Part shown: positions 43,642-50,719 of the stretch, piece after piece
Numbering within the stretch: position 1 is the first letter of the stretch
Layout of the letters: each line of letters starts with the position of its first letter
The notes under the pieces: generated by a model
What the model was told of the DNA's origin: nothing
The model's input: the letters and a program-made list of their open reading frames with translations, nothing else
Databases searched by the model: none
Origin: Candidatus Babeliales bacterium
Lineage (GTDB): Bacteria > Babelota > Babeliae > Babelales > JBFXEV01
Direction of reading: 5' to 3'
NCBI GenBank assembly: GCA_050179755.1
Contig: JBFXEV010000001.1
Span: 361,994 to 425,993 of the forward strand
DNA: 64,000 nucleotides
Translations under genes and position numbers: made by a program

Positions 43642-45279
43642 TTAATTATTTGAATTATCACTTGTAAGCCACTTGTATGCACACCAGCCAAATATCCCAA
43701 GAGCTGCTCCTACACCAAGTACTAATGCTGCTCTTTGAATCACCATTGTTGGCTCTTTCTGAACCTCATTATCTACTGCTAATCCAAGAATCTTCTTAAT
43801 TCCATTCCAATCTTTTTGGTTCTCACCTTGCAAATAGTTCCAAATTTCTCTCGCTTGCTGAGCGCTTATTTGAGACAGCCAGTTAACATCCCACACGCGC
43901 ACGGTGCGATCTACAGATCCTGAAACTATCTTATTGTCAGAAGTTGCACATACTGAAGTAACAGAATACGGAGTATAGAGATTGCAAACGCTCAGTTGAT
44001 TACCTGCCATATCCCATATTCGCACGGTACCTATAGATCCTAAAACTATCTTATTGTCAGGAGTTACACATACTGAGCTAACATAATCTGTATGGCCATT
44101 GCAAACGCTCAGTTGATTACCTGCCATATCCCATACTCGCACGCCGCCGTGATTAGCTCCTGAAACTATCTTATTGTCAGACGTTACGCATACTGAATAA
44201 ACCGAATTAGTATGGCCATTGCATACGCTCAGTTGATTACCTGCCATATCCCATACTCGCACGGTGCGATCTATAGATCCTGAAACTATCTTATTGTCAG
44301 GAGTTACGCATACTGAAGTAACCTGATTTGTATGGCCATTACAAACACTCAGTTGATTACCTGCCATATCCCATACTCGCACGGTGTCATCAACAGCTCC
44401 TGAAACTATCTTATTGTCAGGAGTTACACATACTGAATTAACCCAATTTGTATGGCCATGGCAAACGCTCAGTTGATTACCTGCCATATCCCATACTCGC
44501 ACGGTGTCATCAACAGCTCCTGAAACTATCTTATTGTCAGGAGTTACACATACTGAATTAACGCCACATGTATGGCCATGGCAAACGCTCAGTTGATTAC
44601 CTGCCATATCCCATACGCGCACGGTGCCGTCATAAGATCCTGAAACTATCTTATTTTCAGGAGTTACACATACTGAGCTAACATAATCTGTATGGCCATT
44701 GCAAACGCTCAGTTGATTACCGGGCACGGGTCCTAGTAAACGAGTCATCTGCCCTAACGTAATGGGGTAACGAATTTCCCTTGGCAATCCAGCAATCTGT
44801 TCAGAAGTAATATTTTTAATATCAGTTTGTTTTGCAACATCAATTGCCAACTCTAACAAAAGAGGAATATCCAAATAATTGGTTGCTGCAATAAAATCCA
44901 TAAGATCGGCACCATCAAATGCCTGTATTTGCGCCTTAATTTCTTGCTTAATGGCATCTTTTTCTTTTTGATGGTCCACAGGTTGCTCTTTAAAATTCTC
45001 TACTAACGGTAATAAGCCTTGAATCTTTTGCCATACAGACGCTGTAATAGTAGGAAGTGGAATTGCATTATGCACCGTGTCATATGAAGCATCTTCCAGT
45101 AAATTCTTGATCGTCTCAGATAACTTTAAAAGAGTATCTTGAACTGTAAAACTTTTACCATCTTGCGTGGTGATAGTTGAATGATCCTTAGATTCTTGGA
45201 ATTGACTTTCCATCCCAAATGCAGAGCTTGCTCCGCATACTGCACCAAGTAATAAAATTAGTATATTTTTCTTTAACAT
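43642..45279 (-). CDS. Signal peptide + Skp1-like + F-box-like + WD40 + C-terminal TM protein, copy 4
   Basis: 7 near-identical 40-aa WD40 repeats; tail AALVLGVGAALGIFGWCAYKW. Confidence 0.88.
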   Translation of the reverse strand: MLKKNILILLLGAVCGASSAFGMESQFQESKDHSTITTQDGKSFTVQDTLLKLSETIKNLLEDASYDTVHNAIPLPTITASVWQKIQGLLPLVENFKEQPVDHQKEKDAIKQEIKAQIQAFDGADLMDFIAATNYLDIPLLLELAIDVAKQTDIKNITSEQIAGLPREIRYPITLGQMTRLLGPVPGNQLSVCNGHTDYVSSVCVTPENKIVSGSYDGTVRVWDMAGNQLSVCHGHTCGVNSVCVTPDNKIVSGAVDDTVRVWDMAGNQLSVCHGHTNWVNSVCVTPDNKIVSGAVDDTVRVWDMAGNQLSVCNGHTNQVTSVCVTPDNKIVSGSIDRTVRVWDMAGNQLSVCNGHTNSVYSVCVTSDNKIVSGANHGGVRVWDMAGNQLSVCNGHTDYVSSVCVTPDNKIVLGSIGTVRIWDMAGNQLSVCNLYTPYSVTSVCATSDNKIVSGSVDRTVRVWDVNWLSQISAQQAREIWNYLQGENQKDWNGIKKILGLAVDNEVQKEPTMVIQRAALVLGVGAALGIFGWCAYKWLTSDNSNN

Positions 45280-45367
45280 GTTATAACCCTTATATCCGAA
45301 TCAGTTTCAAAACTGAGACGGGTTTAGCCCGAAGTAGCTAACTTTTATTAGCGAATACGGGTCCACT
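45280..45367 (-). repeat. Intergenic double-hairpin repeat, copy 3 (88 nt)
   Basis: Same sequence as the other spacers with a few substitutions. Confidence 0.9.
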
Positions 45368-48919: not shown

Positions 48920-49006
48920 GTTATAACCCTTATATCCGAATCAGTTTCAAAACTGAGACGGGTTTAGCCCGAAGTAGCTAACTTTTGTTAGCGAAGACGG
49001 GTCCAT
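48920..49006 (-). repeat. 87-nt intergenic double-hairpin repeat, copy 1
   Basis: Same sequence as the other spacers. Confidence 0.9.
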
Positions 49007-50719
49007 TTAATTATTTGAATTATCGCTTGCAAACCACTTATATGCACACCAGCCAAGCACGCCAAGAGCGGCACCAGTGCCAAGCGCTACTGCTGCTCTT
49101 TGTAACAAATTAGTTGGCTCAACAACCGCTGCTCTTAGCTCCAAATTAGCTGGCTCAACTAATGCTGCTCTTTGAATCACCATTGTTGGCTCTTTCTGAA
49201 CCTCATTATCTACTGCTAATCCAAGAATTTTCTTAATTCCATTCCAGTCTTTTTTGTGATCACTTTGCAAATAGTTCCAAATTTCTCTCACTTGTTGAGC
49301 GCTTATTTGAGACAGCCAGTTAACATCCCACACGCGCACGGTGCCATCTACAGATCCTGAAACTATCTTCTTGTCAGCAGTTACACATACTGAATTAACG
49401 AGCTTTGTATGGCCATTGCAAACACTCAGTTGATTGCCTGCCACATCCCATACTCGCACAGTGCGATCTAGAGATCCTGAAACTATCTTAGTGTCCGGCG
49501 TTACACATACTGAGCTAACACTATCTGTATGGCCATTGCAAACGCTCAGTTGATTACCTGCCATATCCCATACTCGCACGGTGCCATCATAAAAACCTAA
49601 AACTATCTTATTGTCAGGAGTTACGCAGACGCACTTAACCCAATTTGTATGGCCATTGCAAACGCTCAGTTTTTGATTGCCTGCCATATCCCATACTCGC
49701 ACGGTGCGATCTATAGATCCTGAAACTATCTTATTGTCAGGAGTTACACATACTGAGCTAACACTATCTGTATGGCCATTACAAACACTCAGTTGATTAC
49801 CTGCCATATCCCATACGCGCACGGTGTCATCAACAGATCCTGAAACTATCTTATTGTCAGGCGTTACACATACTGAAGTAACCCGATTTGTATGGCCATT
49901 GCAAACACTCAGTTGATTACCTGCCATATCCCATACGCGCACGGTGCCATCACGAGATCCTGAAACTATCTTATTGTCAGGAGTTACACATACTGAAATA
50001 ACGCTACCTGTATAGCCATTACAAACACTCAGCTGATTACCTGCCATATCCCATACTCGCACGGTGCCATCATAAGATCCTGAAACTATCTTATTGTCAG
50101 AACTTACACATACTGATCTAACGACACCTGTATGGCCATTGCAAACGCTCAGCTGAACACCTGGCACAGGTCCTAGTAAACGAGTCATCTGGCCTAACGT
50201 AATGGGATAACGAATTTCCCTTGGCAATGCAGCAATCTGCTCAGAAGTTATATTTTTAATATCAGTTTGTTTTGCAACATCAATTGCCACTTGGAATAAC
50301 AGAGGGATATCCAAATAGTTTACTGCTGTAATAAAATCCATAAGATCGGCACCATCAAATGCTTGTATTTGCGCCTTAATTTGTCGTTTTATAGCTTCTT
50401 TTTCTTGGTGATGACCCACCGGTTGCTCTTCAAAATTCTCTACAAACTGCAATAAGCCTTGAATCTTTTGCCATATAGATGCAGTAATAGTAGGAAGTGG
50501 AATTGCATTATGCACCGTGTCATATGCTGCATCTTCCAGTAAATTCTTGATCGTCTCAGATAGCTTTAAAAGAGTATCTTGAACTGTAAAACTTTTACCA
50601 TCTTGCGTGGTGATAGTTGAATGATCCTTAGATTCTTGGAATTGACTTTCCATTCCAAATGCAGAGCTTGCTCCGCATAATGCACCGAACACTAAAATAA
50701 ATATATGTTTCTTAACCAT
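49007..50719 (-). CDS. Signal peptide + Skp1-like + F-box-like + WD40 + C-terminal TM protein, copy 1
   Basis: 7 WD40 repeats; RBS GGAGG; triplicated EPxxxxxRAA segment before the TM helix. Confidence 0.88.
   Translation of the reverse strand: MVKKHIFILVFGALCGASSAFGMESQFQESKDHSTITTQDGKSFTVQDTLLKLSETIKNLLEDAAYDTVHNAIPLPTITASIWQKIQGLLQFVENFEEQPVGHHQEKEAIKRQIKAQIQAFDGADLMDFITAVNYLDIPLLFQVAIDVAKQTDIKNITSEQIAALPREIRYPITLGQMTRLLGPVPGVQLSVCNGHTGVVRSVCVSSDNKIVSGSYDGTVRVWDMAGNQLSVCNGYTGSVISVCVTPDNKIVSGSRDGTVRVWDMAGNQLSVCNGHTNRVTSVCVTPDNKIVSGSVDDTVRVWDMAGNQLSVCNGHTDSVSSVCVTPDNKIVSGSIDRTVRVWDMAGNQKLSVCNGHTNWVKCVCVTPDNKIVLGFYDGTVRVWDMAGNQLSVCNGHTDSVSSVCVTPDTKIVSGSLDRTVRVWDVAGNQLSVCNGHTKLVNSVCVTADKKIVSGSVDGTVRVWDVNWLSQISAQQVREIWNYLQSDHKKDWNGIKKILGLAVDNEVQKEPTMVIQRAALVEPANLELRAAVVEPTNLLQRAAVALGTGAALGVLGWCAYKWFASDNSNN

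Follow-up and report, generated by a model that had tools for sequence, protein, structure and literature searches.

Homogenised WD40 repeats with hypervariable top-face codons in a tandem family of Skp1-like proteins from a Candidatus Babeliales bacterium

Introduction

The locus described here raises two questions: how a WD40 unit of about 120 nt stays uniform across several genes while a few of its codons vary widely, and what the proteins built from it might do. Homogenised WD40 repeats with a diversifying top face are already known from fungal NLR-type receptors and, more descriptively, from prokaryotic STAND/kinase-type proteins. The repeats analyzed here lie in a 64,000-nt stretch of Candidatus Babeliales DNA, referred to as the window. 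An earlier reading of the window from its letters alone (the sequence-only reading) proposed that recombination among the repeats generates a combinatorial binding repertoire resembling that of the fungal het-e family.

Results

The 29 repeats in four genes counted by the sequence-only reading were recovered: four minus-strand ORFs within positions 43642-50719 carry 29 WD40 units of about 120 nt, distributed as 7, 8, 7 and 7 (Table 1). Tandem Repeats Finder described the arrays of g2-g5 with a period of 120, 6.9-7.8 copies, 85-89% matches and scores of 1153-1451. The last three units of g2 are partly degenerate, unit 6 being one codon short and unit 7 one codon longer, and the tail of g5 carries a 36-nt tandem triplication at 49087-49192. 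The architecture of g2-g5 consists of a signal-peptide-like segment, a Skp1-like domain, a helical linker, the propeller, a conserved helix and a hydrophobic tail. A fifth paralog, g1, and all the non-repeat domains were absent from the sequence-only reading. This paralog is made up of a signal peptide, a Skp1-like domain and eight non-homogenised WD40 units, and it lacks the hydrophobic tail (best C-terminal hydrophobicity window 0.34).

Table 1. Coordinates of the genes and their parts in the window
Feature	Positions	Strand	Description
g1, fifth paralog	41839..43554	-	571 aa; ORF call, Skp1_POZ E 3.4e-10
Intergenic spacer, 87 nt	43555..43641	-	near-identical copies at 45280-45367, 47192-47278 and 48920-49006
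g2	43642..45279	-	545 aa; signal peptide, Skp1-like domain, 7 homogenised WD40 units, hydrophobic tail
WD40 array of g2	43891..44715	-	7 units; Tandem Repeats Finder
g3	45368..47191	-	607 aa; 8 homogenised units, hydrophobic tail; mosaic gene
WD40 array of g3	45614..46561	-	8 units; Tandem Repeats Finder
150-nt exact tract, copy 1	45653..45802	-	across the unit 7/8 boundary of g3
150-nt exact tract, copy 2	45893..46042	-	across the unit 5/6 boundary of g3
g4	47279..48919	-	546 aa; 7 homogenised units; member modelled by AlphaFold2
C-terminal region, g4	47279..47524	-	conserved helix past the propeller and hydrophobic tail
WD40 array of g4	47525..48355	-	7 units; Tandem Repeats Finder
N-terminal region, g4	48356..48919	-	signal-peptide-like segment, then Skp1-like domain and linker helix
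g5	49007..50719	-	570 aa; 7 homogenised units
WD40 array of g5	49325..50155	-	7 units; Tandem Repeats Finder
C-terminal regions, g2 / g3 / g5	43642-43890 / 45368-45613 / 49007-49324	-	equivalents of g4 47279..47524
N-terminal regions, g2 / g3 / g5	44716-45279 / 46562-47191 / 50156-50719	-	equivalents of g4 48356..48919

Mean unit identity was 0.83 over the 29 units (range 0.63-0.95) and scaffold identity per protein was 0.85-0.94. The proteins fall in the highly repetitive class of Hu et al. 2017 (internal identity of at least 0.7), by an identity measure that is not exactly theirs. The exact 120-nt duplicate reported at 45661-45780 and 45901-46020 has 0 mismatches, and its identity runs on to 150 nt (Table 1), while the rest of the 240-nt blocks around it (about 90 nt) contains 14 differences. 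This tract of g3 is likely to be a recent conversion tract. The 3-nt insertion said to be common to two genes corresponds to an extra Lys codon in unit 5 of g4 (47753-47875) and unit 5 of g5 (49553-49675), each of which is 123 nt long. All 15 dipeptides listed after Gly-His-Thr were found, and the degenerate final unit of g2 adds a sixteenth; the residues before Asp vary as widely as claimed, with ten found where nine had been named.

Pfam WD40 repeats (PF00400) were recognized in 6-8 stretches of each of the five proteins, at 155-229 bits against a cut-off of 27. The AlphaFold2 model of g4 (pLDDT 84.2, pTM 0.74; linker 90-92, propeller above 90) is a closed propeller in which 28 strands form seven four-stranded blades, and it has helices 474-485 and 529-541 past the propeller and in the tail region. 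The propeller superposes on 2ymu, 5yzv and designer symmetric propellers at 0.8-1.4 Å with 37% identity. Structural matches covering more than 400 aligned columns included chains of Fbw7 and FBXW11/beta-TrCP. Each unit has five hypervariable codons, which in every blade of the model map to the B-C turn, the D-A loop and residue 2 of strand A. Variability is highest at the three top-face hotspots of WD40 domains that Wu et al. 2012 (PMC3419727) defined as R1-2, R1 and D-1, and the remaining two codons are their neighbours. The assignment of the variable positions to the top face agrees with both the model and the published hotspots.

The hypervariable codons showed a pN of 0.52 among the 29 units (0.41, 0.62, 0.54, 0.67 and 0.32 at unit positions 10, 11, 13, 28 and 30), compared with 0.04 (0.038) for scaffold pN and 0.18 for scaffold pS. 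The bootstrap 95% interval of scaffold pS was 0.11-0.26, and the hypervariable pN was reached in 0 of 10000 bootstraps. Under the GY94 model omega was 2.05 at the hypervariable codons (2dlnL of 4.7 over omega = 1 and 61 over omega = 0.2) and 0.20 on the scaffold, with partition rates of 4.14 and 0.55; the substitution rate of the hypervariable codons is about 7-10 times that of the scaffold. The dN/dS check suggested with the sequence-only reading thus gave an elevated value, and positive selection at these codons is modestly significant, the likelihood ratio test for omega > 1 giving p of about 0.03 on five codons with a single fixed tree and recombining data. Silent diversity is also raised at these codons (pS 0.42), so the within-codon pN/pS is about 1.2, and the minimum numbers of changes, 35 replacement versus 6 silent, are by themselves not above the neutral expectation. 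Trp, a single-codon residue, occupies 8 of the 29 R1-2 positions.

The scaffold is strongly homogenised, although the earlier description of it as nearly identical even at silent sites was overstated in view of the scaffold pS of 0.18 among the 29 units. Restricted to core columns the value is 0.13, and 18 scaffold sites are biallelic and informative. Scaffold pS within the arrays of g2-g5 is 0.09-0.16, as against 0.58-0.60 for units of g1, p6 and p7, the paralogs that are not homogenised (g1 alone, 0.60). A comparison of this genome with G017, from a sister species in the same genus, gave pS of 0.60-0.62 at flanking genes (atpD and HerA-like). Scaffold pN is 0.079 in g2 versus 0.032-0.045 in g3-g5. 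The scaffold distance is about equal within and between genes whatever the unit index: 0.067 within a gene, and between genes 0.064 for the same unit index and 0.071 for different ones.

Several lines of evidence supported exchange between units and between genes, by recombination or gene conversion, as the sequence-only reading proposed. All four gametes occur in 57 of 153 pairs of scaffold sites. A Sawyer-type permutation test gave a global P of 0/2000 for all sites and 0.014 for scaffold sites only; the significant shared fragments include out-of-register ones, and the longest concordant run is the 150-nt g3 tract with 66 polymorphic sites, which 0 of 2000 permutations equaled. Gene g3 is a mosaic whose 5′ part of about 400 nt is g1-like and whose remainder is g2-like: its differences from g1 number 0-3 nt per 60-nt window as far as alignment position ~420, and 16-26 beyond it. 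Between g2 and g4, pS is 0.02 in the tails and 0.16 in the N-terminal regions. Sequence thus passes between the 120-nt units of the four genes, within as well as between genes, through gene conversion or unequal recombination, and this exchange keeps the scaffold homogeneous. Flank pS among g2-g5 (0.13-0.32) is similar to between-unit pS (0.13-0.18), and part of the homogeneity could reflect one recent episode in which units were amplified and the genes were then duplicated. Hotspot combinations are unique in 29 of 29 blades. With conversion acting on the scaffold and hotspots changing fast, every blade, and each of the four propellers, presents a different surface, and the diverse top faces may constitute a binding repertoire.

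The N-terminal regions were searched for known domains. The only family found was Skp1_POZ (PF03931; E 3e-10 to 3e-9, 37-41 bits against a cut-off of 21.9), with no NACHT, NB-ARC or HET domain in these scans and, at E ≤ 1, neither the Skp1 C-terminal domain (PF01466, the F-box-binding helices) nor any F-box family. When the family profile was compared with the PDB, 33 of 34 rows were Skp1 chains (best E 2.7e-13), the alignment spanning Skp1 residues ~6 to 135/146 of 163, and all the Foldseek matches listed for the N-terminal model were Skp1 chains; AnkB bound to human Skp1 (PDB 5k35) was among the Foldseek matches. As judged from these alignments, the BTB/POZ domain covers the core of Skp1 without the last F-box-clasping helices. 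Only about 25 residues separate the Skp1-like part from blade 1. Pro-Leu-Pro and Asn-Tyr-Leu-Asp motifs are invariant across the family and align with Skp1, where we presume that they have a role in the Skp1-CUL1 interface. Hydrophobicity windows peak at 1.74-1.84 in the N-terminal segment and at 1.51-1.88 in the C-terminal one; in g1, p6, p7 and several G017 members, Lys/Arg-rich tail motifs replace the hydrophobic tail. With a signal peptide followed by a Skp1-like domain, the proteins are better read as probable effectors directed at the host than as self-defence receptors.

A syntenic locus in G017 contains about 11 family genes with independently homogenised arrays. In the seven G017 genes that were measured (six at this locus and one elsewhere in the genome), within-array pS was 0.11-0.23, unit lengths were 120-129 nt, and the three most variable columns were those of g2-g5. 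The family is rare, since a word search of 5.8 billion proteins returned nine, five of which are the window's own. Skp1-like matches were found in 23 of 201 genomes searched in the order, this genome counted. Among the papers listed by full-text literature searches, none dealt with a Skp1-like protein from Dependentiae, the two names co-occurring only in a reference title.

Discussion

We propose, with a probability of roughly 55%, that the locus encodes a family of effectors that mimic host SCF substrate receptors and that change through concerted evolution together with diversifying selection. On this view the tandem genes turn over fast, belong to an intracellular bacterium with a small genome, and would encode exported proteins that act on the host. 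The Skp1-like module would dock on a host cullin (CUL1-RBX1) with no need of an F-box or of host Skp1. Host proteins would be recruited by the propeller's top face and be ubiquitinated or possibly sequestered, and the hydrophobic C-terminus would serve as a membrane-anchor-like tail. Host targets would then be the selective agent acting on the top-face hotspots. Published passages on Babela (PMC4378268) interpret signal-peptide-bearing, eukaryote-like repeat proteins as secreted into the amoeba and describe mimicry of the ubiquitin system as prominent. A more specific form of the proposal, which we offer tentatively and with considerable doubt, is an evolvable repertoire, in an obligate intracellular bacterium, of F-box-less, single-chain SCF receptors on host CUL1 whose top face is continuously re-assorted by conversion of single units and kept diverse by selection. 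The fusion of a Skp1-like domain to a propeller suggests a hijack of cullin-RING ligases that bypasses host Skp1 and the F-box. If this is true, the bacterium can retarget host ubiquitination as hosts or their targets change. The hypervariable WD40 family looks like a fast-evolving kit for seizing host proteins.

Other explanations have to be weighed against this one. A single amplification of the unit shortly before gene duplication, with no ongoing conversion and with the variable codons as neutral drift at the surface, would fit the similarity of flank and between-unit pS and the within-codon pN/pS of about 1.2; moreover, Hu et al. 2017 (PMC5587647) ascribe highly repetitive prokaryotic WD40s to recent unit duplication. 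We nonetheless consider it an improbable account. Drift is at odds with a hypervariable pN about three times the scaffold pS, a rate 7.5-10 times that of the scaffold, an omega of about 2, a non-neutral composition in which Trp recurs at R1-2, and variation of the same columns in the independently homogenised arrays of G017, at a flank pS between species of 0.6. The four gametes and the out-of-register fragments argue against an absence of conversion. A different possibility concerns the destination of the proteins, since a Sec-type signal and a C-terminal hydrophobic helix could leave them anchored in the bacterial envelope instead. They would then be surface-exposed variable binding proteins, with host or environmental ligands or a role in antigenic variation, and the Skp1-like fold would be a scaffold only. 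The hydrophobic windows at both ends are consistent with such anchoring, and so is the report, in a TM6 genome study (PMC4776705), of type II secretion and type IV pilus components as the only core secretion parts. Invariant motifs that align with Skp1 and the Lys/Arg-rich ends of g1, p6, p7 and several G017 members make this alternative a minor one in our estimation. We also know of no extracellular role of Skp1 folds.

An NLR/STAND-type immune receptor like HET-E, or another anti-phage defence protein, was suggested by the homogenised units with selected top-face sites, which is the HNWD pattern, and by a partial PADLOC match to one model. Both appear very improbable. The signal segment, Skp1-like domain, propeller and tail fill the whole length of the proteins, which leaves no NACHT, NB-ARC or HET domain, and an identity as HET-E-type NLRs was ruled out because the defining nucleotide-binding domain is absent. 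The PADLOC match covers only ~140-185 of 1972 model positions, on the WD40 part, and is not the full-length match by which a known anti-phage system is identified; an NCBIfam search returned no match. Hypermutation by a diversity-generating retroelement, or misassembly of a repeat-rich region, might be considered because the variation is sharply limited to a few codons and the arrays are repetitive, and we regard these as equally remote. Reverse transcriptase (PF00078) had 0 matches in the 1.53-Mb genome whereas control genomes were matched, and the codon variants are not adenine-specific, so the locus was rejected as a retroelement target. As for misassembly, the four genes all have open frames and complete propellers of 7 or 8 blades, every unit is unique, the longest exact repeat of the region is 150 nt, and a single study had three runs, perhaps including the source sample, whose contigs contained 58-69% of the 31-mers sampled from the 9-kb cluster.

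The effector interpretation can be placed beside several known systems. In the HNWD family of Podospora anserina, the WD40 units are highly conserved in DNA within and between paralogs, concerted evolution has been reported, and Paoletti et al. 2007 (PMC1805685) describe four positively selected codons, in two pairs flanking a conserved residue, that sit in the D-A loop and B-C turn of the top face. As in these fungal HNWD/NWD genes (het-e, het-d, het-r), concerted evolution of the units is here accompanied by positively selected top-face codons, the pairs flanking a conserved Val and a conserved Asp. The het-e analogy therefore stands for the evolutionary mode and codon layout and fails for family membership, as the proteins lack NACHT and HET domains and are not NLRs. 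HNWD proteins are HET and NACHT STAND receptors of allorecognition, whereas those studied here are bacterial, with a signal peptide and a Skp1-like domain, one extra variable site ahead of the first pair, a unit number fixed at 7 or 8 that makes a single closed propeller, and no RIP. The highly repetitive prokaryotic WD40s with diverse residues at predicted hotspots described by Hu et al. 2017 (PMC5587647), such as PDB 2ymu and the PkwA propeller 5yzv, share internal unit identity above 0.7 and hotspot diversity with this family. Unlike them, it has a new Skp1-like partner domain, occurs as tandem genes in the reduced genome of an intracellular bacterium, and shows exchange between genes beyond young duplication.

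The SCF receptors (Skp1 with Fbw7/Cdc4 or beta-TrCP) resemble the modelled proteins in their Skp1 fold, helical linker and rigidly held WD40 propeller of 7 or 8 blades, but they are two polypeptides rather than one; no F-box was found in the N-terminal regions here, and the Skp1 part ends at about residue 135-146 of 163, without the F-box-clasping helices. Legionella AnkB (PDB 5k35) is likewise a protein of an amoeba-associated intracellular bacterium, and it plugs into the host SCF ligase, as is proposed for the present family. Bacterial F-box effectors of this type bear an F-box and need the Skp1 of the host, whereas the family described here carries the Skp1 module itself. BTB-Kelch CUL3 adaptors combine a cullin-docking BTB fold and a beta-propeller in one chain, and the near-identical repeats of TAL effectors differ at one or two specificity residues; both are alike by logic alone, as cullin class, repeat fold and ligand type differ. 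If these proteins are effectors, parasites use for attack the evolutionary engine that hosts use for recognition, and the family would be the parasite's equivalent of the repeat-based repertoires that host immune receptors use in recognition.

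Organization of the Gene Cluster

The genome is a single contig of 1.525 Mb, and the window covers its positions 361994-425993. The paralogs g1-g5 lie head-to-tail on the minus strand, flanked by atpD/atpC and an AAA_14/DUF4143 gene. The 29 WD40 repeats in four genes described in the sequence-only reading were recovered as the units of g2-g5 (see the table), and Tandem Repeats Finder detected in these arrays a period of 120 with 6.9-7.8 copies and 85-89% matches. The exact 120-nt duplicate was found again, its identity reaching 150 nt, and the 3-nt insertion shared by two genes is an extra Lys codon common to g4 and g5, in unit 5 of both. 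Every dipeptide and residue listed for the variable positions is present. The observation was thus confirmed, although g1 and all regions outside the repeats had been overlooked.

Features of the WD40 gene cluster and its surroundings (positions in the window)
Feature	Position	Strand	Description
DUF4143-containing gene	38095-39024		near the cluster
g1	41839-43554	-	eight WD40 units, not homogenized
Intergenic spacers	43555-43641, 45280-45367, 47192-47278, 48920-49006		87-88 nt, near-identical
g2	43642-45279	-	7 WD40 units
g2 units 5-7	43891-44235		last three blades, off-scaffold
g3	45368-47191	-	8 WD40 units
Exact 150-nt tract	45653-45802 = 45893-46042		within 240-nt blocks
g4	47279-48919	-	7 WD40 units
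g5	49007-50719	-	7 WD40 units
g5 tail repeat	49087-49192		36-nt unit x2.9, 73% matches
DUF4143-containing gene	51012-52355		includes AAA_14 ATPase domain
HerA-type ATPase gene	52386-54017		next to the AAA_14/DUF4143 gene

The four spacers differ at few bases only, even the one between g1 and g2, despite the wide divergence of the propellers of these two genes. Since they are closer to each other than the silent sites of the coding flanks are, their likeness may reflect co-conversion or the conservation of a regulatory element. The repeat in the g5 tail lies directly ahead of the hydrophobic segment and makes this tail about 24 residues longer than those of g2 and g4. DUF4143-containing genes are found near both sides of the cluster. 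Among the off-scaffold units of g2, the B-C turn is altered in one, the tetrad Asp codon is missing from another, and the third has Leu-Tyr replacing Gly-His plus an additional codon. Scaffold pN is also highest in g2 (0.079), a gene that may be decaying or diverging in function.

Hypervariable Codons and the Propeller Face

Numbering from the first Gln of each unit, positions 10, 11, 13, 28 and 30 carry 8, 9, 10, 10 and 3 different residues, with pN values of 0.41, 0.62, 0.54, 0.67 and 0.32, respectively. The remaining 35 codons, the scaffold, have a pooled pN of 0.038 and a pS of 0.18. In the AlphaFold2 model of g4 (pLDDT 84.2, propeller above 90) each unit begins with strand D, which a loop joins to strand A; strand B follows, and a turn leads from it to strand C. 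The D-A loop closes with positions 10-11, strand A has position 13 as its second residue, and the Asp of the B-C turn stands between positions 28 and 30. According to Wu et al. (2012), the top-face hotspot R1 sits at the beginning of strand A with an aliphatic residue on either side, R1-2 lies two residues ahead of R1, and D-1 directly ahead of the tetrad Asp (PMC3419727). The three codons that vary most coincide with these hotspots, R1 being unit position 13, R1-2 position 11 and D-1 position 28. The earlier proposal that the variable sites map to the top face therefore held, the face being assigned by the strand topology of the g4 model and not by measured distances. Position 19 (Pro/Ser/Ala), in the A-B loop on the opposite face, is mildly variable. 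The three-hotspot combination is unique in 29 of the 29 units.

Selection on the five codons was assessed with the GY94 codon model fitted on one fixed FastTree topology, and the omega values must be read with the caveat that units which recombine are poorly represented by one tree. Omega was 0.20 for the scaffold and 2.05 (scaled scaffold branch lengths) or 2.26 (free branch lengths) for the five codons, which evolved at 7.5-10 times the scaffold rate. For these codons the optimum had an lnL of -462.52, compared with -464.88 when omega was set to 1 and -493.13 when it was set to 0.2. The optimum was thus favored over omega=1 (2dlnL 4.7, p about 0.03), which backs positive selection with moderate statistical strength. 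The minimum counts of replacement to silent changes were 35:6 in the five codons and 25:21 in the scaffold. The bootstrap interval of scaffold pS was 0.11-0.26, and the hypervariable pN of 0.52 was reached in 0 of 10000 bootstraps.

The ratio within the five codons is only about 1.2 because their silent diversity is raised too (pS 0.42). Raised silent diversity at selected codons is expected of alleles kept for long within a homogenizing array; a local mutational bias could conceivably raise it as well. Pure drift is at odds with the residue composition, since Trp, a single-codon residue, occupies 8 of the 29 R1-2 positions. A retroelement mechanism for the hypervariability is unlikely, since no reverse transcriptase match was found in the genome.

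Homogenization and Exchange among Units

Between units of one gene, scaffold pS was 0.09-0.16 in g2-g5 and 0.58-0.60 in g1 and in p6 and p7, two further paralogs located at 682-686 kb of the genome. For reference, pS between this genome and that of a sister species of the same genus (G017) was 0.60-0.62 in the flanking atpD and HerA-like genes. The scaffold distance was 0.067 within genes (91 pairs) and, between genes, 0.064 for units of the same index (42 pairs) and 0.071 for those of different index (273 pairs). These near-equal distances indicated that the 29 units behave as one pool.

Among the 153 pairings of informative scaffold sites, 57 had all four gametes. A Sawyer-type permutation of 25 two-unit blocks (279 pairs) gave, with all sites, a longest concordant run of 66 sites, a length that the permutations, averaging 30, reached in 0 of 2000 cases, and p<0.01 in 14 pairs; with all sites this test is anti-conservative because the hypervariable sites are spatially clustered. 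Restricted to scaffold sites it was weaker, yet still significant (global P 0.014), with p<0.01 in 8 pairs, some of them out of register. The exact 150-nt tract stands beside 14 differing sites in the other ~90 nt of the 240-nt blocks, which is more readily explained by a conversion tract than by an old duplication. In addition, g3 is a mosaic, its 5' ~400 nt being g1-like (0-3 differences per 60 nt) and the remainder g2-like, and between g2 and g4 pS is 0.02 in the tail and 0.16 in the N-terminal region. Flank pS among g2-g5 (0.13-0.32) is similar to that between units, so ongoing conversion is perhaps not the sole cause, and a recent amplification burst may contribute alongside it. Taken together, the evolutionary reading, in which units are exchanged by repeat shuffling or gene conversion, is supported; the outcome may be a combinatorial binding repertoire.

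The syntenic place in G017 holds about 11 family genes, some truncated, flanked by atpD and a HerA-like gene. Seven family genes of G017 (six from this locus, the seventh from another part of that genome) have units of 120-129 nt. Their within-gene scaffold pS is 0.11-0.23, as opposed to 0.47 between G017 units and those of g2-g5, indicating that homogenization took place separately in both lineages. The most variable columns are the same three; in a set of 28 units of a single type they hold 12-13 residues. A history of gene birth and death at this locus is suggested by the truncated or split family genes of the G017 cluster (903000-921000), whose ORFs measure 331, 315 and 314+296 aa.

Distribution of the Family

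A word-based protein search returned 9 proteins, including the 5 encoded in the window. Skp1-like matches were present in 23 of 201 genomes searched in the order (this one counted) and in 16 of 117 genera. An exhaustive profile search yielded 1260 proteins at E <=1e-3, of which 107 passed E <=1e-10. PF00400 was found in 28 of 49 long matches (372-986 aa), chosen by length from roughly the first 110. Where at least 5 units were detectable (26 proteins), the units of a protein shared a scaffold identity of 0.33-0.94, with g2-g5 ranking as the top four, and hypervariable-column identity was 0.07-0.29 throughout. A cluster look-up of 10 representative matches returned unnamed singletons only. Scanning JGI metagenomes with g4 produced 165 stretches matching a pattern, one of which encodes a relative (34% identity, generic WD40), and no strain variants. 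Three DNA runs of one landfill-metagenome study contain 58-69% of the sampled words; the runs listed as containing them include no RNA run.

Protein Architecture and Putative Function

The first ~23 residues are basic and then hydrophobic (hydrophobicity window 1.74-1.84). The N-terminal ~190 residues match Skp1_POZ above the Pfam cut-off, and searching PDB with a profile built from seven N-terminal regions gave 33 Skp1 chains (best E 2.7e-13), the alignment covering Skp1 residues ~6 to 135-146 of 163. The folded N-terminal domain was modeled with a pLDDT of 84.7, and the Foldseek matches listed are Skp1 chains only. The conserved motifs of this domain are putative Skp1-CUL1 interface elements. 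One long helix running into blade 1 stands where the last Skp1 helices would be, helices that are described as clasping the F-box (PMC13237083). A Leu-Pro-x-Glu-Ile segment after the Skp1 part was considered as an F-box and rejected: it has no Pfam F-box match and is a single helix in the model. No F-box, NACHT, defence or NCBIfam family was found in the family proteins. The structures nearest to the propeller model are symmetric designer propellers and solved highly repetitive or thermostable bacterial WD40s.

The C-terminal hydrophobic segment of g2-g5 (window 1.51-1.88) is absent from g1. Across family members there are three alternative ends: a hydrophobic tail (g2-g5, two G017 genes and the protein P0007), a short motif rich in Lys/Arg close to the terminus (one gene at 682-686 kb, L006 1426-3000, the proteins P0006 and P0008, and several G017 genes), or neither (g1 and the other gene at 682-686 kb, L007 1330-2967). 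These ends may direct the paralogs to different host compartments. Judging by domain homology and context, the proteins would most likely act by mimicking a host SCF substrate receptor.

Comparison with Known Systems

The evolutionary pattern of g2-g5 is the same as that reported for the het-e-type HNWD genes of Podospora (PMC1805685) and for highly repetitive prokaryotic WD40 proteins, whose hotspot sites were described as diverse (PMC5587647). As a phenomenon, such repeats are thus already known. The het-e likeness drawn in the sequence-only reading holds for the evolutionary mode and not for family membership. Our literature searches found no published account of a Skp1-like fusion with such repeats in an intracellular bacterium. 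The occurrence of WD40 and F-box domains throughout TM6 genomes has been noted (PMC4776705), and Babela was reported with F-box, RING and deubiquitinase-type proteins, as well as many signal-peptide-bearing repeat proteins taken as secreted into the amoeba (PMC4378268).
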